Assembly (NCBI GenBank): GCA_965225945.1
Contig: CBDDBZ010000032.1
Coordinates: 32,001 to 96,000, forward strand
DNA length: 64,000 nucleotides
Source of the DNA: Alphaproteobacteria bacterium
GTDB lineage: Bacteria > Pseudomonadota > Alphaproteobacteria > GCA-2731375
Direction: 5' to 3'
The position numbers and the translations under genes were made by a program. The notes beneath the pieces are model-generated. The model worked only from the letters and a program-made list of their open reading frames with translations, was not told the DNA's origin and did not search any database. This document shows positions 8,971 to 47,684 of this stretch, piece after piece. Positions within the stretch are counted from its first letter, which is position 1; each line of letters opens with the position of its first letter.

Positions 8971-9948
8971 ATGAAGATCAGGTCCTACGCAGCGGCCGAC
9001 GAGGCCGCGTTGATCGCGCTCTGGCGGGCCTCGGACCTGTTGGTCAATCCCCTGAACGATCCCCGGCGCGACATCCGCTTCTGCCTCGAGAGCGGGCACG
9101 GTGAGATCCTGGTCGGCGAATGCGAGGGACGCCTGGTGGCGAGCGTCATGGTGGGGCACGACGGCCATCGCGGCTGGATCTACTATGTCGCCACCATGCC
9201 GGACCTGCGCGGCGCCGGGCTGGGCCGGCGCATCATGTTCGCGGCGGAGGACCGCCTGGCGGCCAAGGGCGTGGCGAAGGTCGAGCTGCTGGTTCGCGAC
9301 GGCAACACCCGGGTCATCGGCTTCTACCAGCGGATCGGCTATGTCGTGGAGCCGAGGGCGGTCCTGACCAAGCGGCTGGACGGCGTGGGGGTGGCGATGG
9401 GTGGGGCTTCGAGCGACGACGACGTCACCATCACCTTCCTGGAGATGCGGGCCAGGCCGGAGCTGCCCCGGATCGAGCCGGCCGGCCCCGTGGCGCTGCT
9501 CCAGGCCAAGACGCCGACCACCGCCTTCTACCACTACCTCTACGACGCGGTCGGGCGAGCCTGGTACTGGACCGATCGCAAGCAGCTCAACGACGAGGAT
9601 CTCGCGGCGATCATCCAGGACGCGCGGGTGGAGATTTACGTGCTCCACGCGGACGGCGTGCCGGCCGGCTATTTCGAACTCGACCGCCGCCGGGCGCCCA
9701 CCGTCGATCTCGCCTATTTCGGCATCATGGCGGACTTCATCGGCCGCCGCCTCGGCCCTTATCTGCTGGCGAGGGCGATCGAGACGGCGTGGACCGGCGG
9801 CACCGAGCGGTTCACCGTCAACACCTGCACGCTGGACCATCCCCGGGCGTTGCCGATGTACCAGCGCTTCGGCTTCGTGCCCTATGAGCACCGAAAGGTG
9901 CCGCCACCGTGGCGACGGGGCGACACCTCGGCCTACGAGACCGGCTGA
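8971..9948 (+). CDS. tandem two-domain GNAT acetyltransferase
   Basis: N-domain YpeA-like (MVGHDGHRGWIYY, RGAGLG, FYQRIGY); C-domain (LAYFG...GRRLG, NTCTLDHPRALPMYQRFGF). Confidence 0.85.
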   Translation: MKIRSYAAADEAALIALWRASDLLVNPLNDPRRDIRFCLESGHGEILVGECEGRLVASVMVGHDGHRGWIYYVATMPDLRGAGLGRRIMFAAEDRLAAKGVAKVELLVRDGNTRVIGFYQRIGYVVEPRAVLTKRLDGVGVAMGGASSDDDVTITFLEMRARPELPRIEPAGPVALLQAKTPTTAFYHYLYDAVGRAWYWTDRKQLNDEDLAAIIQDARVEIYVLHADGVPAGYFELDRRRAPTVDLAYFGIMADFIGRRLGPYLLARAIETAWTGGTERFTVNTCTLDHPRALPMYQRFGFVPYEHRKVPPPWRRGDTSAYETG

Positions 9949-10178
9949 TAGAGGTCATCAGGCCCCTCGGCCCTCGCCGTCGCCCTCCCCATGGCTTCGG
10001 CCCAGACGCCATCCATGGTCATTTGGCTGATACCGCCCTCGATGGCCTAGCGGATTTCCCGCGCGATCACGGCCTTGCGCCGACCCTCGGACAGGCGCTC
10101 GAGGCGGGCGATATCCGCCGCGCTCGGCGCCGAAAACGAACTGATCTCGATTTCGGGTGTCTCGGCGTCGGTCGTCAT
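9933..10178 (-). pseudogene. small ORF with in-frame TAG, possibly an antitoxin-like remnant
   Basis: MTTDAETPEIEISSFSAPSAADIARLERLSEGRRKAVIAREIR*AIEGGISQMTMDGVWAEAMGRA...; TAG at 10047-10049; C-terminal half resembles ParD-type antitoxin tails. Confidence 0.3.
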
Positions 10179-10266
10179 TTTCAGGTTTTCACCCCTAAAA
10201 CATGGCAATCGAGAACCATTCCGAAATCAAAGTTCATCTCGAGGGGGAGGCTAGAAGGACCACCCC

Positions 10267-11205
10267 CTACGCCGCCTGCTTCCCATTCACGACGTCGAGC
10301 CAGGGGCAGACATCGGCGATCAGGCGTTCGGTCTGCTCGATCAAATCGTCGTCGCCGGCGCCGATCGGGCGCAGGACGAACTTGGAAATGCCGGCATCGA
10401 CATAGCCCTGCAAGCGCCGGACGATCGCCTCGCCGTCACCCGCCACCATGTTCTGGCGCGGATCGCGGGCGAAGCGGGCCTGGAAGGCCTCGGCGTATTT
10501 GCGCGCCGGCCCGTCATCGGGGGCGCCGAAGCGGAAGGCGAACGCCGCGCCGTAATGATCCTCGTCGATTCCCCGTCCGGCCTCGGCCAGCGCCACCTTG
10601 ATCCGCTCGACGACCCGGGCGATCTCGTTCGGCGGCTCGAACGCGCCCTGCCAGCCGGTGCCGAAACGCGCCGTGCGCCGGACCGCCGCCTCGCTGGAGC
10701 CGCCGATCCAGAGCGGGAGCCGCTTCTGCGCCGGCTTGGGCGAGATGGAGGCGCGGTCGTAATGGTAAAACTCGCCCTCGAAGCTGACCTCGTCCTCGGC
10801 CCAGAGCCGGCTGATCAGCTCCAGCCCCTCGTCGGTGCGGCGGCCGCGGCGCCGGGTCTCGCGGCCCGTCGCCTTCCAGTCCGGCGCCAGGCGGTTGCCG
10901 ATGCCGAAGGCCGGCAGCAGACGGCCCTGGCTCAGGAAATCGACGGTGGCGCATTGCTTGGCCAGCAGCAGCGGATCGCGCAGGCCCACCGAGACCACGT
11001 TCATGCCGAACTTCAGCCGCGTGGTCGCGCCGGCCAGCCAGGCCATGGTGCTCATCGCCTCGAGGAAGGGCTGGCGCGAGACCAAGCGATCGGTCTGCCA
11101 GATGGAATCGATTCCCCCCGCCTCGCAGGTCTGGACCCAACGCATGTAGGCCGCCGCCCCGGAGAAGGGAAAGTCGGCGATGCCCAAGCCGATTGCTATG
11201 CTCAC
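10267..11205 (-). CDS. LLM-class (luciferase-like) flavin-dependent oxidoreductase
   Basis: DSIWQTDRL, LAGATTRLKFG, RDPLLLAKQCATVDFLSQGR and LWIGGSSEAAVRRTAR; GTG start with AAGGAG RBS. Confidence 0.88.
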   Translation of the reverse strand: MSIAIGLGIADFPFSGAAAYMRWVQTCEAGGIDSIWQTDRLVSRQPFLEAMSTMAWLAGATTRLKFGMNVVSVGLRDPLLLAKQCATVDFLSQGRLLPAFGIGNRLAPDWKATGRETRRRGRRTDEGLELISRLWAEDEVSFEGEFYHYDRASISPKPAQKRLPLWIGGSSEAAVRRTARFGTGWQGAFEPPNEIARVVERIKVALAEAGRGIDEDHYGAAFAFRFGAPDDGPARKYAEAFQARFARDPRQNMVAGDGEAIVRRLQGYVDAGISKFVLRPIGAGDDDLIEQTERLIADVCPWLDVVNGKQAA

Positions 11206-11222
11206 GATTCGGCTCCTTCGTC

Positions 11223-12026
11223 TCACGCCGCCCGCCGGCGGGGTTCGTAAATGGCCGTGTGCCGAATGCGCAGCAGCGGCGTCAGCTGACCACCGAGGAC
11301 GAGCGCGTCCACCTCGACGAACTTGTGCCCCTTGCGCTCCCGGTTGTCGAGGACCCGCCCCCGCGTCTCCAGCCCGCTCTTGAGCGGCGCGGCGATATAG
11401 TGCTGCACCGTGCTCTCGACGTGGATCCAGGGGCCGAGGGTGACATTGGCGCGGAGCAGAAAGTTGCCCTGGCGCAGCAGCGTCGCCGGATGGAGCCAGC
11501 CCGCTTCGGCGTAGACCGGCAAGGTCTCGCGGACGTTCTCCAGCGCGCGGCGCGCCGCCTCCATGTCCGGATCCTGCCGGTGGGGGGCGAGGATGGCGCC
11601 GATCGGCAGCGTGTGGGGCGCGGCGGGCGGCCTTTCGTCCGGCGCGGGTGCCAGCGGGAAGTCCAGAATCGCCGGCGGCTCGGGCGCCACCGCCGGCAGG
11701 CGCGCGGTCATCCGGGCCGCGACCTCCTCGCGCGCCACCACCGCCACCTCCAGCGCGCCGTCGGGCCCGAGCCCGCTCTCCACCCGGACCAGGTCGCCGT
11801 CGTAGACCGGCTTCAACAGCCTGACGTTGGCCCAGCCCCGGCGGATCCAGTCGGGCCCGAAGTGGCGCACCGCCGCGCCCGTGGCATAGGCGTAGACGTC
11901 GACGCCGGGCACCAGGCCGCCGGAGAAGCCGTACTGGCGGGCCACGCTGTCGTCGTGGATCCGATTGTCCGACGCCACCGCGGTATTGAAGGCCTCGATC
12001 GTGAACGTCGCCGGCGCCGCGCTCAT
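11223..12026 (-). CDS. double hot-dog (MaoC-like dehydratase) protein
   Basis: NRIHDDSVARQYGFSGGLVPG and LLKPVYDGD; second hot-dog domain WIHVES. Confidence 0.75.
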   Translation of the reverse strand: MSAAPATFTIEAFNTAVASDNRIHDDSVARQYGFSGGLVPGVDVYAYATGAAVRHFGPDWIRRGWANVRLLKPVYDGDLVRVESGLGPDGALEVAVVAREEVAARMTARLPAVAPEPPAILDFPLAPAPDERPPAAPHTLPIGAILAPHRQDPDMEAARRALENVRETLPVYAEAGWLHPATLLRQGNFLLRANVTLGPWIHVESTVQHYIAAPLKSGLETRGRVLDNRERKGHKFVEVDALVLGGQLTPLLRIRHTAIYEPRRRAA

Positions 12027-25788: not shown

Positions 25789-26709
25789 CATGGTACACGA
25801 CGGCATTTACGTAGGACGTTGAAAAGGTTGTAGGATTCCCGATTCACTCCACGACGAGTCAAGAGGGAAATCATGCGAGACAACCCGATCAACGCCCTGC
25901 GTGAGACGCTACGATGCGGCTTCGCCTTTCGCAAGAGCCGTCTGGAGAGCCTTTGCGTCTTGGTCTTCGGCGTGTTCGTCGCCCGGACGGTGAACCTCTC
26001 TCACTTGGCCTGCCACTTTCCGGGGCGCGCGCGATCCAGCTCCAACTATCGGCGCCTGCAACGGTTTTTCGAGCAAGTCGATTTCGATTACGATCGCCTC
26101 GCCGAGTTCCTGGTCGCGATGATGGGGCTCCAGGCGGGGCCGTGGCGGCTGACCATGGACCGGACCAACTGGCGGCTGGGTCGCCGCGACGTCAACATCT
26201 TGATGATCGGCATCGTCAACCGCGCCATCGCCATTCCCGTGTGCTGGCGGGTGCTCGACAAGGCGGGCAATTCCAATACCAAGGAGCGGATCGCGATCCT
26301 CGAACACGTCCTCCGGCTCTTCGGGGTCGACAAGATCGCCAGCCTCCTGGCCGACCGGGAATTCATCGGCGACGCCTGGCTGGCATGGTTGCAGGAAAAG
26401 GCCATCCCCTTTCACATCCGCATCCGATCCAACATCAAGATCGCCAACACGCGTGGTCGCATGGTCAAGGCGAGGGAGCTGTTTCGCGACCTCAAACCCG
26501 GGGAAAGCCGCATCCTCTCCAACGCCAGGCGCCTCTCGGAGGCCAGAAAACCCAAGGCCAGGCCCGTCTTCGTCGCCGCGCTCCATCTCAAGACCGGCGA
26601 ACTGTTGATCGTCGTGACCAACGACGCGCCCGAGGAGGCCTTGGCCATCTACGCCCAGCGCTGGCAAATCGAGACCCTCTTCGCCGCCTTGAAAACCCGT
26701 GGCTTCAAC
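25789..26709 (+). mobile_element. IS4-family element copy A, truncated by insertion of the IS1595-derived cassette
   Basis: left IR catggtacacgac; matches the intact copy at 46462-47684 up to ...ggcttcaac; transposase from 25873 truncated after LKTRGFN. Confidence 0.92.
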
Positions 26710-26795
26710 CTTGCCTATCCGGTTATCACCCACACCCACTATATGTAGTGTGCACCCATTTTCCTGAGTAAAGCTCGGTGCAGGTCGAAGCGGAG
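26710..26795. mobile_element. partial end (about 86 bp) of the IS1595-derived cassette
   Basis: cttgcctatccggttatcacccacacccactatatgtagtgtgcacccattttcc... matches 42959 onward; cut by IS256. Confidence 0.92.
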
Positions 26796-26836
26796 GATTG
26801 AGCAACCTGATGTGTGGAAATTCGGAACGCCGTTGA

Positions 26837-28048
26837 TCAGTCATCCTCTGCTTTCCAAGTGATGTAGGGTTTTTCGGTGGTTTCCCATTTCTCGTCGATT
26901 TCGACGAGGATGGCGGTGACCAGACGTTCGAGCGAGGCCTCGTTGGGAAAGACCCTGACCTTTACGGTGCGGCGCTTGATCTCCTGCTGGATGGATCGCT
27001 CCATGGGGTTCGAGGTTCGCATGCGCTTTTGGTGGCGCTCGGGCAGGGCGAAGACGGCGAGGCCCTCGGGGATCGCCGTCTCCAGCCAATCGGCGAGCTT
27101 GGGGGCGCTGTCGCGGTAGGCCGCCACCAGATGGCCCAGCTCGGCCTCGGCGGCCTTGCCGTCGGCGGCGTTCCAGACCCGGCGCAGCTCCTTGCCGATG
27201 GCCTTTCGGATGGCGAGGTTGGGGGCGTGATGGATGGCGTTTTGAGCCAGATGGTACTGACAGCGCTGCCAGACGGCGCCGCCGAGGACGGCCTTGCGCG
27301 CGGCGCCGAGGCCTGGATGATCATCGGAAACGATATAGGCGACACCGCGCATGCCACCGGCAACCAGGGTCTCCAGGAAGGCGCGCCAGTGCACTTCGGC
27401 CTCGGAGAGCGCACAGGAAACACCGAGCACCCGGCGGCGCTGGTCGGGGCCGATGCCGATCACCGAGAGCACGGCGGCGTCGCGCACCACGCCACCCTCT
27501 CGGACTTTCTCATAGCGCGCGTCGAGGAGCAGGTAGCGGATCTCGCCCAGCGGCCGGTTGCGCCAGGCATCCAGCTCCCCATCCAAGAGCTTGGCGGCGC
27601 GGCTGACCTGGCTCGACGACAGGCTCTCCAGGCCGAACTCGCGCATCACCGCCTCGGCGTCACGGGTGGAGACGCCTTTGATATACATCTCCGCCACGGC
27701 CAGCATGACAGCGCGGCAGGAGCGCCGTCCGCGCTCCAGGGCTTGGGGGTAAAAAGGCGCCTCATGACCGGCGGTCTTGGGAACCTCGAGCCTCACCGTA
27801 CCGGCCGGGGTGTCGATCTTCTTGGGTCTGGTGCCGTTGGCGTATCCCCGCCGCTCGGGCGTGCGCTCATAGTGGCCGGCGCCCAAGAACCTCTCCCGCT
27901 CGATCCGCATGGCGAGATTGAAAAGGCCGGCGAAGACCGTCGCCATGTTCTCGCTACCGCCTTCGATCAATTGTTCCACCAAAGCCTCGACAGCGCTATC
28001 CTGGTCTTTCCGCATACTGGTTCTCCATGTTTGTTTGGACGCTTTCAT
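26837..28048 (-). CDS. IS256-family transposase
   Basis: MYIKGVSTR, LLLDARYEKVR, IVSDDHPGL, WQRCQYH and RTSNPMER. Confidence 0.95.
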   Translation of the reverse strand: MKASKQTWRTSMRKDQDSAVEALVEQLIEGGSENMATVFAGLFNLAMRIERERFLGAGHYERTPERRGYANGTRPKKIDTPAGTVRLEVPKTAGHEAPFYPQALERGRRSCRAVMLAVAEMYIKGVSTRDAEAVMREFGLESLSSSQVSRAAKLLDGELDAWRNRPLGEIRYLLLDARYEKVREGGVVRDAAVLSVIGIGPDQRRRVLGVSCALSEAEVHWRAFLETLVAGGMRGVAYIVSDDHPGLGAARKAVLGGAVWQRCQYHLAQNAIHHAPNLAIRKAIGKELRRVWNAADGKAAEAELGHLVAAYRDSAPKLADWLETAIPEGLAVFALPERHQKRMRTSNPMERSIQQEIKRRTVKVRVFPNEASLERLVTAILVEIDEKWETTEKPYITWKAEDD

Positions 28049-28067
28049 GGATAACCAAAATGACGGA

Positions 28068-28103
28068 TCGCCCCGCGCCGGGGTATACCCCGGCGCGGGG
28101 CGA
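28068..28103. repeat. 36-bp perfect palindrome in the IS256 leader (also at 31282-31317)
   Basis: tcgccccgcgccgggg-tata-ccccggcgcggggcga. Confidence 0.9.
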
Positions 28104-28150
28104 AGCCAAATTTCCAGACCTCACGCTACACAAGCCTCCGGGGGGGGGGG

Positions 28151-28180
28151 CGGTCATGTGGGTGTCTTCGAGGTTGAAGC
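28151..28180 (-). pseudogene. 30-bp inverted fragment of the IS4 transposase continuing copy A
   Basis: reverse complement gcttcaacctcgaagacacccacatgaccg equals the sequence following the breakpoint in the intact IS4. Confidence 0.85.
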
Positions 28181-28935
28181 CTTGCCTATCCGGTTATCAC
28201 CCACACCCACTATATGTAGTGTGTCTCCTTGGACTGCAGGCAAGGGCCGGCGCAGGCGCATTGAGGAGGCGATCCGGCTAATTCTTGATTGTTCTGAAAA
28301 CCGAACCGGAGTTTAATTCACGTCACGTATTTAACATCGGGGGACGGAACGGTGGCGACCAAGGGAAAAACGAAGAAACCCACGGCCAGACGGGAAGCTG
28401 CTGATGAAACGACATCGTCTGAGCGATTGACGGCACTAGTCGAAGAAAGCGACGCGCTGGCACGAATCGTTGCGAAGAACCCGTCCGCGCCTGTTAGTCT
28501 CCTGCGCGTTTTGAGTCGCAGCGAAGACGAAGCGACACGCAAGAACGTGATCCTCAATCCGTTTACTTCATATGACGTATTGAGCGAACTTGAAAACCAG
28601 TTCACAGAGCTATTTGTGAATAATCCGGCACTCGAATCCTACAATTCAATGAAGCTCTGATTTCCTGGAATATTCCATCGGTGTCGTTCACCTCCGATTT
28701 CAGATAAATTTCAATGAAGTGACGGTCCTTTATGCAACGTGGCGTTTTGCCAAATCCGACTCAATGATTAGGATTTCCACCACGCTAAAGTGTCGCCTAA
28801 AAGGCGCTACAATGCCGTCCGAGTCCCTGCTCGGCATCGCCGGAGATATCTCCGCTTCGACCTGCACCGAGCTTTACTCAGGAAAATGGGTGCACACTAC
28901 ATATAGTGGGTGTGGGTGATAACCGGATAGGCAAG
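28181..28935 (+). mobile_element. non-autonomous IS1595-derived cassette, copy 1 (755 bp)
   Basis: 43-bp perfect TIRs cttgcctatccggttatcacccacacccactatatgtagtgtg; outer 15 bp shared with the adjacent IS1595; lower-GC interior. Confidence 0.92.
28352..28660 (+). CDS. passenger protein, leucine-rich-repeat-variant (LRV/HEAT-like) helical repeats, 102 aa
   Basis: repeated VAKNPSAP..LL..L, VILNPFTS..VL..L and VNNPAL; GTG start with GGGGGA RBS; identical protein at 43234-43542. Confidence 0.6.
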   Translation: MATKGKTKKPTARREAADETTSSERLTALVEESDALARIVAKNPSAPVSLLRVLSRSEDEATRKNVILNPFTSYDVLSELENQFTELFVNNPALESYNSMKL

Positions 28936-28943
28936 GAATGAAC

Positions 28944-30048
28944 CTTGCCTATCCGGTTAACGCCCATGACCGCTACATGTAGGGTGCCGCCACTCTCCCG
29001 AGTAAAGCTCGGCATAGGTTGGAGCAGAGGTGTCGCCCGCGATGCCGAGCAATGAGCGGAAGGCGTTGAACGGGTAGAACCGCCTGTTGAAGCGGAAGGT
29101 GAACTCGTTGAGGTAGGCTTGTAGGTGCTGGTGGCTAACGCCGTGGTGGATACCGATCAGCCACGTCTTCAGGTTGGCGAAAACCAGATGGATGATCGGC
29201 AGGTATTGCTCGGCAACCTCTGGATCACCACACTCGGCAACAGCGAAGTGCTCATAGCCGCGCTTACCGAGGCCAGCATAGCCGCTCCAATCGTCAGTAA
29301 CGATCAGCGATCCCGGCGCGACGGTGCTCTCGACGAACCCACAGAGCGACTCGGCGCTACGGTCGAGCACGACGGCGAGCCGAACGCGTCCGGCATAGCG
29401 TCCGTCTTTCCGGTTGTCGAGCTTGGTGCCCGGCTTTCGATGACGCACCTCGATGGCACAGGAGACGAGAACCTTGTGGTGAACACCACGGCCTTCCCCA
29501 CGCGTTCGCCCGCCAACCCAGGTTTCGTCCACCTCAACATGGTTCTTGGGCTGTCCACCGATCCTGTCTTGGTTGGGCCGCACCATGCCCGAGCGGAGCT
29601 TGTGGAGAATTTGAAAGGCCGTCTCGTAGCGCGAAAGACCAAGTTGCCGCTGAAACTGCACGGCGGACATGCCGGGCGTCTGACTGGCGACCAGATAAGC
29701 GGCCCAGAACCAGACGTTCAGCGGAGTGTGGCTACGCTCCATCACTGTTCCCACCGTCAGCCCGGTGTTCTGGCGGCACTTGCGGCAGCGCAGGACGCTA
29801 GGGCGGTTTTCAAAGTGGAACGGCTCTCCCGCCGTGCCGCAGTGCGGGCAGGCAAAGCCGTCTCCCCAGCGGGCTTTCTCCAGGTAGGCGGCGCAGGCCG
29901 CATCATCGGGGAAAAGTCGCTGGAACTCGGGTAGCGAATGCGGGAATGGGAGATCGGCGCGGTCGAGAACATCCATGGCGCGCTCCCCTATATCCGGTTT
30001 GCGCCCATTCTAGCCCTAGTGGGTGTGGGTGTAAACCGGATAGGCAAG
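28944..30048 (-). mobile_element. autonomous IS1595-family element (1105 bp)
   Basis: TIRs cttgcctatccggtt at both ends; flanks gaatgaac and gatcagtc are not duplicated. Confidence 0.92.
28957..29976 (-). CDS. IS1595-family transposase
   Basis: zinc ribbon CPHC...CRKC, VEVDETWVGG, TDDWSGY and HHGVS.QHLQAYLNEFTFRFN. Confidence 0.95.
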   Translation of the reverse strand: MDVLDRADLPFPHSLPEFQRLFPDDAACAAYLEKARWGDGFACPHCGTAGEPFHFENRPSVLRCRKCRQNTGLTVGTVMERSHTPLNVWFWAAYLVASQTPGMSAVQFQRQLGLSRYETAFQILHKLRSGMVRPNQDRIGGQPKNHVEVDETWVGGRTRGEGRGVHHKVLVSCAIEVRHRKPGTKLDNRKDGRYAGRVRLAVVLDRSAESLCGFVESTVAPGSLIVTDDWSGYAGLGKRGYEHFAVAECGDPEVAEQYLPIIHLVFANLKTWLIGIHHGVSHQHLQAYLNEFTFRFNRRFYPFNAFRSLLGIAGDTSAPTYAELYSGEWRHPTCSGHGR

Positions 30049-31352
30049 GATCAGTCATCCTCTGCTTTCCAAGTGATGTAGGGTTTTTCGGTGGTTTCCC
30101 ATTTCTCGTCGATTTCGACGAGGATGGCGGTGACCAGACGTTCGAGCGAGGCCTCGTTGGGAAAGACCCTGACCTTTACGGTGCGGCGCTTGATCTCCTG
30201 CTGGATGGATCGCTCCATGGGGTTCGAGGTTCGCATGCGCTTTTGGTGGCGCTCGGGCAGGGCGAAGACGGCGAGGCCCTCGGGGATCGCCGTCTCCAGC
30301 CAATCGGCGAGCTTGGGGGCGCTGTCGCGGTAGGCCGCCACCAGATGGCCCAGCTCGGCCTCGGCGGCCTTGCCGTCGGCGGCGTTCCAGACCCGGCGCA
30401 GCTCCTTGCCGATGGCCTTTCGGATGGCGAGGTTGGGGGCGTGATGGATGGCGTTTTGAGCCAGATGGTACTGACAGCGCTGCCAGACGGCGCCGCCGAG
30501 GACGGCCTTGCGCGCGGCGCCGAGGCCTGGATGATCATCGGAAACGATATAGGCGACACCGCGCATGCCACGGGCAACCAGGGTCTCCAGGAAGGCGCGC
30601 CAGTGCACTTCGGCCTCGGAGAGCGCACAGGAAACACCGAGCACCCGGCGGCGCTGGTCGGGGCCGATGCCGATCACCGAGAGCACGGCGGCGTCGCGCA
30701 CCACGCCACCCTCTCGGACTTTCTCATAGCGCGCGTCGAGGAGCAGGTAGCGGATCTCGCCCAGCGGCCGGTTGCGCCAGGCATCCAGCTCCCCATCCAA
30801 GAGCTTGGCGGCGCGGCTGACCTGGCTCGACGACAGGCTCTCCAGGCCGAACTCGCGCATCACCGCCTCGGCGTCACGGGTGGAGACGCCTTTGATATAC
30901 ATCTCCGCCACGGCCAGCATGACAGCGCGGCAGGAGCGCCGTCCGCGCTCCAGGGCTTGGGGGTAAAAAGGCGCCTCATGACCGGCGGTCTTGGGAACCT
31001 CGAGCCTCACCGTACCGGCCGGGGTGTCGATCTTCTTGGGTCTGGTGCCGTTGGCGTATCCCCGCCGCTCGGGCGTGCGCTCATAGTGGCCGGCGCCCAA
31101 GAACCTCTCCCGCTCGATCCGCATGGCGAGATTGAAAAGGCCGGCGAAGACCGTCGCCATGTTCTCGCTACCGCCTTCGATCAATTGTTCCACCAAAGCC
31201 TCGACAGCGCTATCCTGGTCTTTCCGCATACTGGTTCTCCATGTTTGTTTGGACGCTTTCATGGATAACCAAAATGACGGATCGCCCCGCGCCGGGGTAT
31301 ACCCCGGCGCGGGGCGAAGCCAAATTTCCAGACCTCACGCTACACAAGCATC
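30049..31352 (-). mobile_element. IS256-family element type 1, copy B, right IR replaced by the IS1595 end
   Basis: near-identical to 26793-28138 but starts at gatcagtcatcc, just past the transposase stop. Confidence 0.9.
30051..31262 (-). CDS. IS256-family transposase (one residue different from copy A)
   Basis: same translation except LVAGGMRG versus LVARGMRG. Confidence 0.95.
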   Translation of the reverse strand: MKASKQTWRTSMRKDQDSAVEALVEQLIEGGSENMATVFAGLFNLAMRIERERFLGAGHYERTPERRGYANGTRPKKIDTPAGTVRLEVPKTAGHEAPFYPQALERGRRSCRAVMLAVAEMYIKGVSTRDAEAVMREFGLESLSSSQVSRAAKLLDGELDAWRNRPLGEIRYLLLDARYEKVREGGVVRDAAVLSVIGIGPDQRRRVLGVSCALSEAEVHWRAFLETLVARGMRGVAYIVSDDHPGLGAARKAVLGGAVWQRCQYHLAQNAIHHAPNLAIRKAIGKELRRVWNAADGKAAEAELGHLVAAYRDSAPKLADWLETAIPEGLAVFALPERHQKRMRTSNPMERSIQQEIKRRTVKVRVFPNEASLERLVTAILVEIDEKWETTEKPYITWKAEDD

Positions 31353-31430
31353 GCCCAAGCGCTGGAGCTTATCGCGTAACGCCGTTTCCTCAGCCTGTAT
31401 CGCACCCGGTTCCTTGGACACAAGTTTGTC

Positions 31431-32342
31431 TCATGCGGCGGGCCTGAGTGACATCGCGGTGTGCCACGCCTGACGAGCTTGAGCGGGGCTCAGGTAGCCG
31501 TTCTTCTCCACGATCCACTGGGCATTGTACTGTTCGACGAACCCGCGGACGGCGTTCCGCAGCTCCGCGATGTTGCGGTAGATGCGGCCATGGATGATCT
31601 GTTCCTTGAGCGTGCGATTGAACCTCTCGGCGACGCCGTTGGTCTGGGGCTGTTCGACGAAGGCGTAGGACGGCTGGATGCCCCAGAACTTGATCTGGTT
31701 GGTGAAGTGGTCCGACAGATACTGGGAGCCGTGATCCATCCGCAAGGCCAGCCCCCGCGCCGCACCGGCGGAGGTCGAGGCATACAGCCTCGCAAGCCCC
31801 ATGGAGATCGGCTGAAGGGCGGCGAAGCGGTCGCCTCGCTTGCACACATGCCAGCCGACGCACTCGGCGTTCCAATGCTCGATGGCGGTGAATATCCAGC
31901 CCCAGCCGTCGTCCACCGTGAACACCCGAACGCCGTCCGTGCCCCACATGAGGTTGGGGGCATGGGTGATGATCTCACCGACATGGGGATTTCCGCCACG
32001 GCGGCGGCAGCGATGGGGCGAGAGCAGGTTGTTCTCGCGCATCACCCGGAGCACCCGCTTGCGGGAAACACGGATGCCACGACAGACCCGAAGCCGAGCC
32101 CAGACCTTGCGGTGTCCCTCGCCCTCCCAGGGGGATGCCTCCAGGTCGGCCTCGATGGCCACCAGCAGAGCCTCGTCCGAGATCGAGGGCTTCGGTCCCC
32201 GGCGCTTTGCTGGTGGGCGCTCAGCGGTGGCCTGCTGCCGGGATTTCATGGCGTAGAACGAGGAACGGGCAAAACCCCAGGCCGCACAGACCCGCTGGAG
32301 GCCGTAGGCCAAACCCGTGCCGGGAGAGGTGGCGGCACTCAT
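31431..32342 (-). CDS. DDE transposase OrfB (rve integrase core)
   Basis: WGTDG, RMDHGSQY and TNGVAERFNRTLKEQ. Confidence 0.92.
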   Translation of the reverse strand: MSAATSPGTGLAYGLQRVCAAWGFARSSFYAMKSRQQATAERPPAKRRGPKPSISDEALLVAIEADLEASPWEGEGHRKVWARLRVCRGIRVSRKRVLRVMRENNLLSPHRCRRRGGNPHVGEIITHAPNLMWGTDGVRVFTVDDGWGWIFTAIEHWNAECVGWHVCKRGDRFAALQPISMGLARLYASTSAGAARGLALRMDHGSQYLSDHFTNQIKFWGIQPSYAFVEQPQTNGVAERFNRTLKEQIIHGRIYRNIAELRNAVRGFVEQYNAQWIVEKNGYLSPAQARQAWHTAMSLRPAA

Positions 32343-32770
32343 CGCCGCGACCTCCGCCGCCCCAAAGGGCCGGACGTCTCCGTCTTGGCCTCCAGCAGTT
32401 CCACCTGCATGATCAACTCCCCGATCCGCTTCATGGCGATGTCCAGTTCCGCCTTTACCGGATCGCCCTTGCGTTCCTTGAGCGAGGCATCGATCCCGGC
32501 GATCGCCTTCTCACGCCACTGCTCGAGCCGGAAAATCTCCACGCCCAACTGCCGCGACAAAAGTTCCACCGGCTCGCCACGCAAAAGCCGCAGGGCAACC
32601 TCACGCTTGCGCGTCACCGTCCACCGCTGGCCAAGTCCCAGCGGGCCTGCCGGCGAAACCTGGCCCGGGGAAAACGTGGACGAGCCAAGCTCGCCCTCGT
32701 TTACCACAGGCCCATCAACAGCAACTTTGTTTTCAAAATTGTCGGTCATGTTCCGGTCCTCCTTGGACAC
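32339..32770 (-). CDS. transposase OrfA (HTH)
   Basis: RWTVTRKREVALRLLRGEPVELLSRQLGV plus leucine zipper; ATGA overlap with OrfB. Confidence 0.85.
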   Translation of the reverse strand: MSKEDRNMTDNFENKVAVDGPVVNEGELGSSTFSPGQVSPAGPLGLGQRWTVTRKREVALRLLRGEPVELLSRQLGVEIFRLEQWREKAIAGIDASLKERKGDPVKAELDIAMKRIGELIMQVELLEAKTETSGPLGRRRSRR

Positions 32771-33916: not shown

Positions 33917-35367
33917 GGGGATGTCCCGGGCTCTGTTGAAAAGCTGAAGTAGGCGTCGTCCGCCTGGAGCCGCTAGGCTCTGGGTGCTGATTCCATCAAG
34001 GAGAACGACGCCATGACCAAGACTACACGCAACGACCGTTCCTCGGAACCATCCTGTCGGCTCTTGCCATCGATGCCGGAGGCCTTCGACGATCTGCGCA
34101 TGAGCGTCGATCGCTTCTGCCTTTTGGCGGGCCTCGAGTCTTTGAACGAGATGATGTCGGCGGACGCGGAAGCCTTGTGCGGTTCGCGCCACGCCCGCTC
34201 GGGCGAGCGCAAGGGCCATCGATGGGGCACGACCCGGAGCGAGATCGCCTACCACGGCGGCAAAGTGAAGGTCGAGCGCCCTCGGGTGCGGGACTTCGCG
34301 GGTCGGGAGATGAGCCTGCCGAGTTGGGAGCTGCTGTCGGAACCCGAACTCTTGCAAGCCTGGGCGATGAATCTGATGGTGATCAACGTCTCGACCCGCA
34401 AGTATGCCCGCGCGGTGCGCCTGCCGGACGATGCGGGCGGCGATCTGCCGGCGGCATCGGGTGACGCAACCTCGAAGTCGGCGGTCTCGCGCCGTTTCGT
34501 GGCGTTGACGCGAAGCAAGCTGAAGGCCTGGCTGGCGAGCCCGCTCGACGATCTCGATCTCGTGGTGCTCCAGATCGACGGGCTCCATGTCGGCGATCAC
34601 CTGATGGTGGCGGCGATCGGCATCGACACCGGCGGCGCGAAGCACGTGCTGGGCCTGGCCGAGGGCGCGACGGAGAACGCGGCCACGGTGCAAGCCATGC
34701 TCGACAACCTGATCGAGCGCGGTCTCGATCCCGAACGGCCTCGGCTCTACATCGTCGACGGCGCCAAGGCGCTCTCGAAGGCGATCCGGCGGACCTTCGG
34801 GCGGGCGGCGGCCCTCCAGCGCTGCCAGGTGCACAAGGGGCGCAACATCACGGACCGGCTGGACGAGAGCCTCCATGCCGGCGTCAGGAAGGTCTTGCGG
34901 CAGGCCTGGCAGCAGGACGACGCGGCCAAGGCCGAACGGCTCTTGCGCAACCTCGCCCGCCGTCTGGAGCATGACGCACCCGGCGTCTCGGGCTCGATCC
35001 TGGAGGGCCTGGACGAGATCCTGACCGTGATCCGGCTCGGCCTCCCGCCGCAACTTCGACACTCGCTGGCTTGCACCAACGCCATCGAGAACGCGATCGG
35101 CACCGTCCGGACGGTGCAGCGGAACGTCAAGCGCTGGCGCAACGCCGAGATGGCGCTGCGTTGGACCGCCGCCGGCCTCTTGGAGGCGCAAAAGACCTTC
35201 CGCCGCCTCAAGGCCTACCGCCAGCTCCCCGTCCTTGACGCCGCCCTGCGGGAGGCGGTGAGAAAGGCCGGAGCAAAGTCCGTCATTGAAGACATCGAGG
35301 TGGCCGCGTAGCCTCTCGATCAGACGATGCCTATCTCGCACTTTTCAACATTGGGCGGGACATCGCC
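33917..35367 (+). mobile_element. IS256-family element type 2, intact with 8-bp target duplication
   Basis: IRs ggggatgtcccgggctctgttgaaaag and ggcgatgtcccgcccaatgttgaaaag; TSD tagtcgaa at 33909-33916 and 35368-35375. Confidence 0.95.
34013..35311 (+). CDS. IS256-family transposase
   Basis: NVSTRKY, LQIDG, IVDGAKAL, QRCQVHK and CTNAIEN. Confidence 0.95.
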   Translation: MTKTTRNDRSSEPSCRLLPSMPEAFDDLRMSVDRFCLLAGLESLNEMMSADAEALCGSRHARSGERKGHRWGTTRSEIAYHGGKVKVERPRVRDFAGREMSLPSWELLSEPELLQAWAMNLMVINVSTRKYARAVRLPDDAGGDLPAASGDATSKSAVSRRFVALTRSKLKAWLASPLDDLDLVVLQIDGLHVGDHLMVAAIGIDTGGAKHVLGLAEGATENAATVQAMLDNLIERGLDPERPRLYIVDGAKALSKAIRRTFGRAAALQRCQVHKGRNITDRLDESLHAGVRKVLRQAWQQDDAAKAERLLRNLARRLEHDAPGVSGSILEGLDEILTVIRLGLPPQLRHSLACTNAIENAIGTVRTVQRNVKRWRNAEMALRWTAAGLLEAQKTFRRLKAYRQLPVLDAALREAVRKAGAKSVIEDIEVAA

Positions 35368-42932: not shown

Positions 42933-42958
42933 ATAGGCCGAGTGGTCGAGGGAACAAG

Positions 42959-43712
42959 CTTGCCTATCCGGTTATCACCCACACCCACTATATGTAGTGT
43001 GCACCCATTTTCCTGAGTAAAGCTCGGTGCAGGTCGAAGCGGAGATATCTCCGGCGATGCCGAGCAGGGACTCGGACGGCATTGTAGCGCCTTTTAGGCG
43101 ACACTTTAGCGTGGTGGAAATCCTAATCATTGAGTCGGATTTGGCAAAATGCCACGTTGCATAAAGGACCGTCACTTCATTGAAATTTATCTGAAATCGG
43201 AGGTGAACGACACCGATGGAATATTCCAGGAAATCAGAGCTTCATTGAATTGTAGGATTCGAGTGCCGGATTATTCACAAATAGCTCTGTGAACTGGTTT
43301 TCAAGTTCGCTCAATACGTCATATGAAGTAAACGGATTGAGGATCACGTTCTTGCGTGTCGCTTCGTCTTCGCTGCGACTCAAAACGCGCAGGAGACTAA
43401 CAGGCGCGGACGGGTTCTTCGCAACGATTCGTGCCAGCGCGTCGCTTTCTTCGACTAGTGCCGTCAATCGCTCAGACGATGTCGTTTCATCAGCAGCTTC
43501 CCGTCTGGCCGTGGGTTTCTTCGTTTTTCCCTTGGTCGCCACCGTTCCGTCCCCCGATGTTAAGTACGTGACGTGAATTAAACTCCGGTTCGGTTTTCAG
43601 AACAATCAAGAATTAGCCGGATCGCCTCCTCAATGCGCCTGCGCGGCCCTTGCCTGCAGTCCAAGGAGACACACTACATATAGTGGGTGTGGGTGATAAC
43701 CGGATAGGCAAG
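42959..43712 (-). mobile_element. non-autonomous IS1595-derived cassette, copy 2 (754 bp), 8-bp TSD
   Basis: 43-bp TIRs; ggaacaag at 42951-42958 and 43713-43720; I see 2 substitutions and a 1-bp indel versus copy 1. Confidence 0.95.
43234..43542 (-). CDS. passenger LRV/HEAT-like protein, copy 2
   Basis: identical translation to 28352-28660. Confidence 0.6.
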   Translation of the reverse strand: MATKGKTKKPTARREAADETTSSERLTALVEESDALARIVAKNPSAPVSLLRVLSRSEDEATRKNVILNPFTSYDVLSELENQFTELFVNNPALESYNSMKL

Positions 43713-44107
43713 GGAACAAGGAGGCCGGATGCGATTATTCCATTGCGCGGCGCGCGCTCTGGGCTTTGCCGCGGTTGTCACGGGCGCCATCTTCGGCCGC
43801 CCCGGCACCCGCCGGAGGGGCGCGCCCGCCGCGCGCCATGATCGATGCCACCGAGTACCCTTGGCGTGCCTTCGGCCGGGTCAACCGGCAGGGACGGGGG
43901 TTCTGCACCGGCGTCTTGATCGCGCCCGAGGTCGTGCTGACGGCCGCCCATTGTCTCTATGACACCAAGCGGCGTGCTTGGGTGGAGCCGCGTTTCATGC
44001 ATTTCGTCGCCGCCTATCAGAAGGGCCGCTTTCTCTTCGACTCCAAGGTCGCCCGCTTCGAGATCGGCAAGGGCTACGAGCCCGGGGGCGAGCGGCGAAG
44101 TTCGATC

Positions 44108-45983
44108 CTTGCCTATCCGGCAGTACACGACTCGTTCATGTTGGCTTTGGCCTGGGCACCTGGACTGGTGGTTTTCCGGGGACGAGGAAACGAATCAGCT
44201 CAATGGCTTGACGCCTGTCGATAGGATTGACGAGCTGTCGCCTTATCCACTCGAAACCGTATCGGAAGATGGATTTTGCCATCCTTTTGTGGGTTTTGAG
44301 GCGGATCGGCTCGGCCTCGTGGAGCCAATCGCCGACTTTGTGCGCCCAGCAGAAGGTGATGGAAAGGACGGCGGTGAGCTTGGAGATGCGCTCCGGGTCG
44401 GTCATGTGGGTGTCTTCGAGGTTGAAGCCGCGGGTTTTCAAGGCGGCGAAGAGGGTCTCGATTTGCCAGCGCTGGGCGTAGATGGCCAAGGCCTCCTCGG
44501 GCGCGTCGTTGGTCAACGACGATCAACAGTTCGCCGGCTTGAGATGGAGCGCGCGACGAAGACGGGCCTGGCCTTGGGTTTTCTTCCGAGAGGCGCCTGG
44601 CGTTGGAGAGGATGCGGCTTTCCCCGGGTTTGAGGTCGCGAAACAGCTCCCTCGCCTTGACCATGGACCACGCGTGTTGGCGATCTTGATGTTGGATCGG
44701 ATGCGGATGTGAAAGGGGATGGCCTTTTCCTGCAACCATGCCAGCCAGGCGTCGCCGATGAATTCCCGGTCGGCCAGGAGGCTGGCGATCTTGTCGACCC
44801 CGAAGAGCCGGAGGACGTGTTCGAGGATCGCGATCCGCTCCTTGGTATTGGAATTGCCCGCCTTGTCGAGCACCCGCCAGCACACGGGAGCGATGGCGCG
44901 GTTGACGATGCCGATCATCAAGATGTTGACGTCGCGGCGACCCGCGCCAGTTGGTCCGGTCCATGGTCAGCCGCCACGGCCCCGCCTGGAGCCCCATCAT
45001 CGCAACCAGGAACTCGGCGAGGCGATCGTAATCGAAATCGACTTGCTCGAAAAACCGTTGCACCGATAGTTGGAGCTGGATCGCGCGCGCCCCGTGGCAG
45101 GCCAAGTGAGAGAGGTTCACCGTCGAAGACCAAGACGCAAAGGCTCTCAACGGCTCTTGCGAAAGGCGAAGCCGCATCGTAGGTCTCACGCAGGGCGTTG
45201 ATCGGGTTGTTCATGATTTCCCTCTTGACTCGTCGTGGAGTGAATCGGGTCAACTTACGTAAATGCCGTCGTGTACCATGCCCACACCCACTATATGTAG
45301 TGTGCACCCATTTTCCTGAGTAAAGTCGGTGCAGGTCGAAGCGGAGATACGATGCCGAGCGACTCCCATTGTAGCGCCTTTTAGGCGACACTTTAGCGTG
45401 GTGGAAATCCTAATCATTGAGTCGGATTTGGCAAAATGCCACGTTGCATAAAGGACCGTCACTTCATTGAAATTTATCTGAAATCGGAGGTGAACGACAC
45501 CGATGGAATATTCCAGGAAATCAGAGCTTCATTGAATTGTAGGATTCGAGTGCCGGATTATTCACAAATAGCTCTGTGCTGGTTTTCGCGCTCAATACGT
45601 CATATGAAGCGGATTGAGGATCACGTTCTTGCGTGTCGCCGTCTTCGCTGCGACTCAAAACGCGCAGGAGACTAACAGGCGCGGACGGGCTTCGCAACGA
45701 TTCGTGCCAGCGCGTCGCTTTCTTCGACTAGTGCCGTCAATCGCTCAGACGGTCGTTTCATCAGCGCTTCCCGTCTGGCCGTGGGTTTCTTCGTTTTTCC
45801 CTTGGTCGCCACCGTTCCGTCCCCCGATGTTAAGGGCGTGACGTGAATTAAACTCCGGTTCGGTTTTCAGAACAATCAAGAATTAGCCGGATCGCCTCCT
45901 CAATGCGCCTGCGCCGGCCCTTGCCTGCAGTCCAAGGAGACACACTACATATAGTGGGTGTGGGTGATAACCGGATAGGCAAG
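44108..45983 (-). mobile_element. IS1595-derived cassette copy 3 with IS4 nested in its TIR; deletion-riddled
   Basis: TSD gttcgatc at 44100-44107 and 45984-45991; TIR split as cttgcctatccgg | cccacacccactatatgtag. Confidence 0.9.
44121..45280 (-). pseudogene. IS4-family copy C with many small deletions
   Basis: colinear with 46462-47684 but frameshifted by numerous short deletions. Confidence 0.88.
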
Positions 45984-46461
45984 GTTCGATCGAAAGCGCG
46001 AGCGACTGGGCGATCCTGCATCTGGCGCGCGCGGCGGGTCCCGAGGTCGGCTATCTGGGGGTCGCGCACCTCCGCCCCGGGGACGCGCTGGCGCCGAAGC
46101 CCATCTTCACCCTCGCCGGCTACGGCCGCGACCGGCCCTATGCGCTGTCCGCCCACCGGAACTGCGCGTTGCTGCGTTGGGACGGGGCGGCACCGCTGGT
46201 GCACCACGATTGCCGGGCTGAGCATGGCACCTCGGGCGCGCCGATCATCCGGCGCCTCGGGCGGGACTATGTCGTGGTGGCGCTCCACGTCGGCCGGGGC
46301 GAGCTCGGGAGCCGAGAGATCGGCGCCGCCGTGCCCTCCGGCGTCTTCTTCGAGGCGGCGCTCGGGGCGACCGGTCGGCGCGCGCGGCGATCCCCGGGGC
46401 TGGGCCTCTTCATGGCCGGCAGCCGCGCGAAGTGATGCCAACCGAGGTAATACCAACGGAC

Positions 46462-47684
46462 CACAGTACACGACTCGTTCATGCTGGCTTTGGCCTGGGC
46501 ACCTGGACTGGTGGTTTTCCGGGGACGAGGAAACGAATCAGCTCAATGGCTTGACGCCTGTCGATAGGATTGACGAGCTGTCGCCTTATCCACTCGAAAC
46601 CGTATCGGAAGATGGATTTTGCCATCCTTTTGTGGGTTTTGAGGCGGATCGGCTCGGCCTCGTGGAGCCAATCGCCGACTTTGTGCGCCCAGCAGAAGGT
46701 GATGGAAAGGACGGCGGTGAGCTTGGAGATGCGCTCCGGGTCGGTCATGTGGGTGTCTTCGAGGTTGAAGCCACGGGTTTTCAAGGCGGCGAAGAGGGTC
46801 TCGATTTGCCAGCGCTGGGCGTAGATGGCCAAGGCCTCCTCGGGCGCGTCGTTGGTCACGACGATCAACAGTTCGCCGGTCTTGAGATGGAGCGCGGCGA
46901 CGAAGACGGGCCTGGCCTTGGGTTTTCTGGCCTCCGAGAGGCGCCTGGCGTTGGAGAGGATGCGGCTTTCCCCGGGTTTGAGGTCGCGAAACAGCTCCCT
47001 CGCCTTGACCATGCGACCACGCGTGTTGGCGATCTTGATGTTGGATCGGATGCGGATGTGAAAGGGGATGGCCTTTTCCTGCAACCATGCCAGCCAGGCG
47101 TCGCCGATGAATTCCCGGTCGGCCAGGAGGCTGGCGATCTTGTCGACCCCGAAGAGCCGGAGGACGTGTTCGAGGATCGCGATCCGCTCCTTGGTATTGG
47201 AATTGCCCGCCTTGTCGAGCACCCGCCAGCACACGGGAATGGCGATGGCGCGGTTGACGATGCCGATCATCAAGATGTTGACGTCGCGGCGACCCAGCCG
47301 CCAGTTGGTCCGGTCCATGGTCAGCCGCCACGGCCCCGCCTGGAGCCCCATCATCGCGACCAGGAACTCGGCGAGGCGATCGTAATCGAAATCGACTTGC
47401 TCGAAAAACCGTTGCAGGCGCCGATAGTTGGAGCTGGATCGCGCGCGCCCCGGAAAGTGGCAGGCCAAGTGAGAGAGGTTCACCGTCCGGGCGACGAACA
47501 CGCCGAAGACCAAGACGCAAAGGCTCTCCAGACGGCTCTTGCGAAAGGCGAAGCCGCATCGTAGCGTCTCACGCAGGGCGTTGATCGGGTTGTCTCGCAT
47601 GATTTCCCTCTTGACTCGTCGTGGAGTGAATCGGGAATCCTACAACCTTTTCAACGTCCTACGTAAATGCCGTCGTGTACCATG
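46462..47684 (-). mobile_element. IS4-family element, intact (1223 bp), 9-bp TSD
   Basis: IRs cacagtacacgac and catggtacacgac; ccaacggac at 46453-46461 and 47685-47693. Confidence 0.95.
46479..47600 (-). CDS. IS4-family transposase (DDE_Tnp_1)
   Basis: MDRTNW, LADREF and YAQRWQIETLF..LK (YREK motif). Confidence 0.95.
   Translation of the reverse strand: MRDNPINALRETLRCGFAFRKSRLESLCVLVFGVFVARTVNLSHLACHFPGRARSSSNYRRLQRFFEQVDFDYDRLAEFLVAMMGLQAGPWRLTMDRTNWRLGRRDVNILMIGIVNRAIAIPVCWRVLDKAGNSNTKERIAILEHVLRLFGVDKIASLLADREFIGDAWLAWLQEKAIPFHIRIRSNIKIANTRGRMVKARELFRDLKPGESRILSNARRLSEARKPKARPVFVAALHLKTGELLIVVTNDAPEEALAIYAQRWQIETLFAALKTRGFNLEDTHMTDPERISKLTAVLSITFCWAHKVGDWLHEAEPIRLKTHKRMAKSIFRYGFEWIRRQLVNPIDRRQAIELIRFLVPGKPPVQVPRPKPA

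Follow-up and report, generated by a model that had tools for sequence, protein, structure and literature searches.

Mobile insertion cassettes (MICs) are elements that are bounded by the inverted repeats of an insertion sequence (IS), lack a transposase gene and contain a coding sequence (CDS) between the repeats, according to two sources (PMC3129680; PMC6199540). The same sources define both MICs and transporter ISs by passenger genes that are unrelated to transposition. Trans-transposition by the transposase of the parent IS231 has been demonstrated for MIC231 of Bacillus cereus; the passenger genes differ among MIC231 elements, and the size quoted for MICs ranges roughly from 700 bp to 3 kb (PMC6199540, excerpt). 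[quoted passage not shown] The present work concerns a cassette of about 755 bp, found in a 64,000-nt stretch of contig CBDDBZ010000032.1 of an alphaproteobacterium (the whole stretch is hereafter called the window). The cassette carries a single 102-aa gene, referred to as the cargo, and is a non-autonomous derivative of the IS1595 clade. The IS1595 family was reportedly described by Siguier et al. in 2009 and is said to include 'transporter IS' members with passenger genes.

Comparison with described systems

Inverted repeats of IS type were found at both ends of the cassette; they are perfect (43/43) in two copies from the window, W1 and W2, and occur at both ends of 13/13 related loci that are not cut by a contig end. 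No transposase gene lies between them, only a remnant of 31 codons, and the interior contains a CDS, the 102-aa open reading frame (ORF), with a coding pattern of variation. Since the repeats are of IS type, the transposase is absent and one CDS is present, the cassette is a mobile insertion cassette by definition. MIC231 likewise lacks a transposase, possesses two IS-type repeats and one or more internal CDSs, and makes the kind of target duplication that is typical for its parent IS. The parent family of the cassette, however, is IS1595 and not IS4/IS231, and most relatives of the cassette are 523–546 bp in length (755 bp in the window), which is under the size range quoted for MICs. In contrast to the varied passengers of MIC231, the cassette family has one constant 102-aa LRV gene, and we infer its trans-mobilisation, which for MIC231 was demonstrated.

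The cassette resembles the IS1595 family and its transporter ISs in having 8-bp target site duplications (TSDs), related terminal inverted repeats (TIRs) and a gene not concerned with transposition inside IS ends. Transporter ISs, however, keep a transposase together with the passenger between the same ends, whereas the cassette has only the 31-codon remnant, and a transposase was found in 0/16 copies with complete ends. With MITEs such as MITEPye1 it shares the small size, TIRs related to those of a resident IS, TSDs, the lack of a transposase, the presence of several copies and a presumed activation in trans. Its interior is not non-coding, however: the ORF takes up 309 bp of 523–755 bp, about 60% of the cassette, and is under purifying selection. 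Because of this conserved and selected ORF the cassette was not filed as a MITE, though its size, TIRs and TSDs fit.

The TSDs are 8 bp long at two copies in the window, W2 and W3, and at 4–9 of 13 related loci, depending on stringency, and the cassette retains IS1595-type ends and a 3′ remnant of the transposase gene, so that the proposal of the initial annotation that it is a non-autonomous, IS1595-derived element holds. The data thus support a non-autonomous derivative of the IS1595 clade that makes 8-bp TSDs in this and in other genomes. It is probable that this MIC is mobilised in trans by a transposase of the IS1595 clade. Neither an IS1595-derived MIC nor an LRV gene in an IS-type cassette was described in the literature searched, although an earlier entry in ISfinder or in the founding paper of the IS1595 family is possible; that literature covers IS231-derived MICs, qnr-carrying MICs, Tn3-type MICs and MITEs from other IS families. 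The kind of element is therefore already known, and an IS1595-derived MIC with a constant LRV cargo is a new example of it. The name of the architecture, the constancy of the cargo throughout the family and the interrupted and decayed state of the third copy are the points that go beyond the initial annotation.

Copies of the cassette in the window

The window contains three cassette copies, designated W1, W2 and W3, and one end fragment; loci from other genomes bear designations beginning with L (for example L011). W1 (28181–28935, + strand) is complete, 755 bp long, with TIRs at 28181–28223 and 28893–28935 and an intact ORF. W2 (42959–43712, − strand) is 754 bp long and inverted, with an intact ORF at 43234–43542, and is flanked by the exact TSD GGAACAAG at 42951–42958 and 43713–43720. 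In both copies the unit is bounded by CTTGCCTATCCGG...CCGGATAGGCAAG. Two substitutions and an indel of 1 nt separate W1 from W2; the two copies share one ORF sequence and encode the same protein, and their status as recent copies is supported. The 86-nt fragment (26710–26795, + strand, inverted relative to W1) is 100% identical to the right end of W1 and abuts a truncated IS4 copy (25789–26709). A search with a 32-nt TIR probe, allowing up to three mismatches, yielded seven sites in the window, where 0.00 were expected from 100 shuffles; six of them mark ends of the cassette, and the seventh belongs to the IS1595 element next to W1, at one of its ends. The GC content of W1 is 51%, compared with 66% for the window. 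The unit, its partial end, the 43-bp perfect TIRs, the clean 8-bp duplications of the second and third copies and the near-identity of the first two had all been reported in the initial annotation, and were reproduced here at the same positions.

The third copy, W3 (44108–45983, − strand), is also derived from the cassette and has its own exact TSD, GTTCGATC, at 44100–44107 and 45984–45991. It is not the plain copy it had been taken for, however, but is split and decayed. An IS4-family element (44121–45280) is inserted within its TIR; the family assignment of this insert was taken from its sister copy (46479–47600). In comparison with W2, 39 nt are missing from the cassette part of W3 in 11 small deletions, and there are one insertion and eight substitutions; together these changes destroy the ORF. 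The IS4 within it lacks 64 nt of its intact sister (46462–47684) as a result of 14 deletions, and shows one insertion and 10 substitutions besides. W3 splits a gene for a trypsin-like serine protease (43715–44107 and 45992–46430), both halves of which are otherwise open; the motifs TAAHC, DWAIL and GTSGAP were read from its translation.

Taken together, W3 and its IS4 show 25 deletion events (103 nt), two insertions and 18 substitutions relative to their sister copies. This excess of deletions is due either to an unusually deletion-biased decay or to a mis-polished repeat. The prevalence of small deletions over substitutions, which is possible with mis-polished repeats, is what might suggest that the copies are collapsed or duplicated repeats produced by assembly and not separate insertions. 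Such an artefact is hardly credible, since each copy has separate flanks and an 8-bp TSD of its own, the protease gene is split cleanly by W3 and is open apart from that, and the cassette is found with different TSDs in independent assemblies.

The cassette family in other genomes

A scan of genome_contigs with the cargo protein gave 21 loci, 15 of which, at an identity of at least 70%, were counted as members of the family; the genome that contains the window is not represented among the 21. These 15 loci (70–96% identity) belong to metagenome-assembled genomes (MAGs) of Alphaproteobacteria, Rhodospirillales, Stellaceae and Rhodoplanes, to one labelled 'Proteobacteria' and to one Dehalococcoidia MAG. 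The last of these (L002, 7813–8354) has flanks with a GC content of 58.6%, and could be a case of spread across phyla or a binning error. Three loci each occur in two MAGs. The other six loci (43–56% identity) have ORFs of 300–693 aa and no cassette ends nearby; five of them are in cyanobacterial MAGs or genomes and one in an unclassified MAG.

The end C(G/T)TGCCTATCCGG was found upstream of the ORF in 15/15 family loci, about 147–237 nt from the tblastn match (575 nt in L011), and an inverted downstream end is present in all 13 family loci that are enclosed by their contigs. Eleven of these 13 are 523–546 bp long and consist of a TIR, a leader of about 130 nt, the ORF, 15–25 nt and the second TIR. 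The 755-bp form in the window is longer by about 215 nt, which follow the ORF and include the remnant of the transposase gene; L016 and L020 have the same CTTGCC end as this form. TSDs at the 13 enclosed loci are exact (8/8) in four, exact after a boundary shift of 1–2 nt in two, 7/8 in three and absent in four. The GC content of the element is 48–52% throughout, compared with 59–66% for the hosts.

Among the 16 copies with both ends, the ORF is intact in 10 and broken in six (W3 and L009–L013). L011 (1028 bp, 500–1527) is a cassette of the window type whose LRV gene is interrupted by an insertion of about 270 nt. L013 (1974 bp, 9830–11803) was considered as a cassette with an alternative cargo, and is actually an LRV cassette whose LRV gene has received an IS3-type insertion. 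A form of the cassette bearing a transposase, as in transporter ISs, was not found in any of the 21 loci.

Relationship to IS1595 and the source of the transposase

An autonomous IS1595-family element of 1105 bp (28944–30048, − strand) lies 8 bp from the right end of W1, in a head-to-head arrangement. Its transposase gene (28957–29976, − strand) encodes a full-length protein of 339 aa with the domains Zn_ribbon_IS1595 (PF12760, E 3.5e-13) and DDE_Tnp_IS1595 (PF12762, E 3.6e-37), and scores 192.6 bits with NF033547 against a cut-off of 75; both domains that characterise the family are thus present. The protein aligns over its full length with hundreds of homologues of 336–342 aa (79–99% identity), the named ones being from Magnetospirillum.

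The initial annotation had noted that the outer 15 bp of the cassette match this IS1595. That likeness was confirmed, since the outer 16 nt of the cassette TIR agree with the two ends of the element at 16/16 and 15/16 positions, but it proved to be far longer: 35/43 positions are shared with each end, and the 3′ part of the cassette (28810–28935, + strand), consisting of a remnant of the transposase gene and the right TIR, matches positions 981–1105 of the IS1595 with 77% identity over 126 nt (blastn, E 7e-23). The remnant is in frame, with 22 of 31 residues identical to residues 308–338 at the C-terminus of the transposase (tblastn, E 5e-11). The shared ends and the 126-nt remnant indicate that the cassette is a deletion or replacement derivative of an element of the IS1595 clade. 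The end CTTGCCTATC presumably resembles the end motif that ISfinder gives for the ISSod11 group. From these alignments the parent of the cassette appears to be an element of the IS1595 clade, and not necessarily the neighbouring copy itself.

In the proposed mechanism the cassette, having lost its own transposase, would retain both of the ends that a transposase recognises, and, by analogy with MIC231 and IS231, an IS1595-clade transposase acting in trans would bind the cassette TIRs and insert the cassette by a staggered cut of 8 bp. IS1595 members usually carry flanking 8-bp TSDs, with which the cassette agrees (PMC8101967, excerpt). The 8-bp TSDs, the near-identical copies and the fact that the genome also contains a related IS1595 that is intact are circumstantial evidence for trans-mobilisation.

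The intact IS1595 8 bp away from W1, which the initial annotation took to be the driver, is plausible, on sequence grounds, as the obvious though not the sole candidate for this part. Its candidacy follows from the fact that the cassette ends are nearer to each of its ends (35/43) than those are to each other (31/43); a transposase that accepts its own two divergent ends should tolerate those of the cassette. Several observations nevertheless weigh against this particular element, and to some extent against the proposed mobilisation as a whole. There are mismatches at 8 of 43 positions between its ends and the cassette TIR, and no complete IS1595 transposase was found in the flanks of the 21 loci, examined up to 10 kb on each side (less at contig ends), where the only pieces of transposase are two short fragments of 30 aa and 41 aa. 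It is a real possibility, if a somewhat less than even one, that the driver is another IS1595-family element elsewhere in the genome with a better match to the TIR, and that the adjacency to the element at 28944 is a by-product of an IS hotspot. The region is indeed a nest of ISs (IS4, two IS256, IS3 and another IS256-like element). In addition, the remnant matches the neighbouring transposase at 20/29 positions, no better than many members of the clade, 44 of the 120 listed transposase relatives matching at 19–21/29. Against a driver elsewhere stand the likeness of the cassette TIR to each end of the neighbour and the near-perfect agreement of the outer 16 nt. The neighbouring IS1595 has no 8-bp TSD of its own, being flanked by GAATGAAC and GATCAGTC; since it abuts W1 and an IS256 in a rearranged IS nest, the original flanks may have been lost.

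The cargo gene and its protein

The cargo gene (28352–28660, + strand) has a GTG start codon and a Shine-Dalgarno-like run, GGGGGA, upstream, and is the only convincing ORF in the W1 cassette. Its 102-aa product belongs to the Pfam family LRV_2 (PF25591, E 2.6e-8, 34.1 bits against a gathering cut-off of 27), while the score with LRV (PF01816) is 19.4 bits, below the cut-off of 21.6. No transposase domain was found in the cassette, as the search of the ORF against Pfam and NCBIfam returned the LRV_2 match only and NCBIfam gave no match for the LRV protein; the view of the initial annotation that the cassette encodes a repeat protein and no transposase is thereby borne out. In the AlphaFold2 model, built from an alignment of 35 sequences, residues 23–100 form an all-helical repeat (pLDDT 75) and the N-terminus is disordered and rich in lysine and arginine. 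The cargo thus resembles LRV and LRV_2 proteins (PF01816, PF25591; 1LRV) in exceeding the LRV_2 cut-off and in being predicted to form a short alpha-solenoid. Unlike the cellular LRV proteins, which have 300–2200 aa and in some cases an N-terminal WGR domain, it is a stand-alone repeat module of about 80 residues, to which a tail that is basic and disordered is attached.

Homologues of the cargo at 74–99% identity numbered 234 in a word-indexed search. In the 120 of these that were listed, the length is exactly 102 aa in 85 cases and 99–107 aa in 102. Many are on contigs of about 450–1500 bp, which is roughly the size of the element; such very short contigs are to be expected, since a repeat element breaks assemblies. 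An exhaustive search of cluster representatives showed that the family of small proteins reaches down to 55% identity at a length of 102–104 aa, and none of the representatives with at least 55% identity is longer than 165 aa. Beyond this level there are only large LRV/HEAT proteins of 400–2200 aa (32–44% identity), to the N-terminal 95 or so residues of which the cargo aligns. Some of the giant relatives (P0122, P0123) start with a WGR domain, and the cargo aligns right after it; in those lacking WGR it aligns to the N-terminus. A search of the ESM Atlas returned only LRV-named clusters.

The ratio of nonsynonymous to synonymous substitution rates (dN/dS), calculated by the Nei-Gojobori method for the 28 pairs of eight intact ORFs, is 0.14–0.56 in 28/28 pairs, with a median of 0.21 and dS of 0.13–1.39. 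The five other frames of the same alignment gave medians of 0.37–3.03, and for seven pairs the ratio was below one in 95–100% of bootstrap replicates. Variable columns at codon positions 1, 2 and 3 number 58, 35 and 80 of 103 each. The mean pairwise identity is 82% and 78% for the two TIRs, 76% for the ORF and 58% for the leader. The position of the start codon is aligned among members (GTG in the window and ATG in the relatives), as is the G-rich Shine-Dalgarno-like run. The cargo ORF evolves under purifying selection.

These results bear on the alternative, raised in a similar form in the initial annotation, that the ORF has no function and is a relic, in which the 5′ part of a large LRV gene was captured and now rides in a MITE. 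The in-register alignment with the N-terminal 95 or so residues of LRV proteins of 300–2200 aa (33–56% identity) is what such a relic would show, and the broken ORFs in six of the 16 complete-ended copies point in the same direction. A fragment free of purifying selection does not agree with the dN/dS values, however, the signal of which is specific to the frame, nor with a length of about 102 aa maintained down to 55% identity and the conserved start codon position and Shine-Dalgarno-like run. A relic is therefore very improbable. The cargo is a real protein and belongs to the protein-binding solenoids.

Flanks of W1 and the surrounding region

W1 has no direct TSD: its left flank is GTTGAAGC and its right flank is GAATGAAC. 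The octamer GCTTCAAC (26702–26709), which adjoins the 86-nt fragment on its left, is the reverse complement of the left flank of W1, 1.5 kb away. It makes up one half of a TSD of 8 bp in inverted arrangement, and GTTGAAGC (28173–28180), beside the left end of W1, makes up the second. GCTTCAAC and GTTGAAGC map to the same 8 nt of IS4 sequence. The segments 25789–26709 and 28147–28172, taken with both octamers, represent one contiguous place in IS4 and overlap by exactly those 8 nt; the two IS4 pieces within 25789–28180 lie in opposite orientation. As the simplest history, the cassette would have inserted into an IS4 copy, with a target duplication of 8 bp; two cassette copies in inverted orientation would then have recombined and flipped the intervening segment, and later losses around the IS256 copy at 26835–28146 would have removed most of one cassette. 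Read in this way, the inverted TSD records a third insertion event in the window.

The right end of W1 faces the end of the IS1595 that carries the 3′ part of the transposase gene across exactly 8 bp, GAATGAAC, which is the TSD length of the family (28893–28986). W1 and the IS1595 together (28181–30048) have compatible inverted outer ends and no common TSD, and could in principle form a single mobile unit. A search of 28100–29000 against Rfam gave only sub-threshold 'miRNA' matches, on the palindromic junction formed by the inverted repeats and the 8 bp between them.

The surroundings contain two IS256-family copies (26835–28146 and 30049–31360), which encode transposases of 403 aa and show no difference in at least the first 300 aligned nucleotides; the same perfect palindrome of 36 nt follows each of them (28068–28103 and 31282–31317). 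The second copy directly abuts the IS1595. IS-rich patches occupy 25.8–35.3 kb and 42.9–47.7 kb within a housekeeping chromosomal stretch (topoisomerase B subunit, BipA and metabolic genes). They comprise IS4 (three copies or fragments), the two IS256 copies, IS1595, IS3 (31431–32770) and a further Mutator-type transposase (34013–35311). A phage-type integrase is encoded at 62256–63452.

Possible role of the cargo and significance of the cassette

The cargo may be a protein-binding adaptor, which could act on the transposase that the cassette borrows, or on a host factor by which this enzyme is limited or controlled. The cargo is constant in a minimal, multi-copy and compositionally foreign element, whereas the cargos of MIC231 vary, and this leads us to lean, tentatively and at less than even confidence, towards a function that serves the spread or persistence of the element itself rather than ordinary host physiology. 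A more specific form of this idea is that the LRV protein is an accessory factor of the cassette, which captures or retunes the IS1595 transposase or neutralises a restraining host factor, and that the family is in this sense 'semi-autonomous'. The retention of one and the same tiny gene by purifying selection in all lineages of a minimal element would then be understandable, but we regard the idea as speculative and rather unlikely.

A conventional passenger directed at the host is nearly as likely as a cargo serving the element. On this account the cassette is a classical MIC whose LRV protein plays no part in transposition and influences the physiology of the host instead, for instance by serving one of its proteins as an adaptor, and the element spreads a gene that is mildly useful or addictive; taken by itself, this explanation is doubtful too. 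The excerpts that define MICs and transporter ISs by passengers unrelated to transposition would lead one to expect it (PMC3129680; PMC6199540), the distant relatives of the cargo are large cellular LRV/HEAT proteins without TIRs, and purifying selection fits a benefit to the host equally well. It accords less well with the presence of the same tiny cargo in 15/15 family loci, unlike the differing passengers of MIC231 (PMC6199540, excerpt), and with the lack of any tblastn match of the LRV protein in 72,556 plasmid records; the several copies per genome, the frequent decay and the persistently foreign GC content also look selfish.

Apart from the ambiguity of purifying selection, several results fail to link the cargo to transposition or speak against the proposed explanation. 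The fold search foreseen in the initial annotation returned no significant match, Foldseek giving 0 matches at E ≤ 0.001 for the AlphaFold2 model against the PDB (best E 0.56, weak and generic ARM/HEAT/VHS solenoids), and a sequence profile search of the PDB found only 1LRV at an insignificant E of 0.58. PADLOC assigned the cargo to no family, and PHROGs gave one match at E 0.34. A scan for promoters and terminators revealed no consensus sigma-70 promoter upstream of the ORF; there is one promoter-like site in the 3′ region, which is no more than shuffles give. The broken ORFs in six of the 16 complete-ended copies also imply that a copy can persist without an intact ORF in cis, although a cargo product acting in trans is compatible with decayed copies. 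The complex prediction for the IS1595 transposase and the LRV protein, made without controls, yielded scores of 0.26 and 0.01, the mark being 0.32, and weighs neither way on binding.

Non-autonomous bacterial elements are usually either non-coding, as MITEs are, or carry varied genes useful to the host, as MICs do. The cassette is a MITE-sized, multi-copy IS1595 derivative that keeps one 102-aa repeat protein even where synonymous sites are near saturation (dS reaching about 1.4). The MAGs that contain it are from uncultured organisms, for the most part Alphaproteobacteria, and several metagenome sources have yielded related proteins. The element disrupts host genes, as with the protease in the window, and seems to have driven the inversion found there. 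For annotation, 'hypothetical proteins' of about 102 aa on very short contigs can be recognised as the cargo of this cassette. If it is true that the protein helps to exploit the parent transposase, the cassette would be a simple and testable hyper-parasite with its own hijacking factor; otherwise it would be a well-delimited addition to the short list of MICs.

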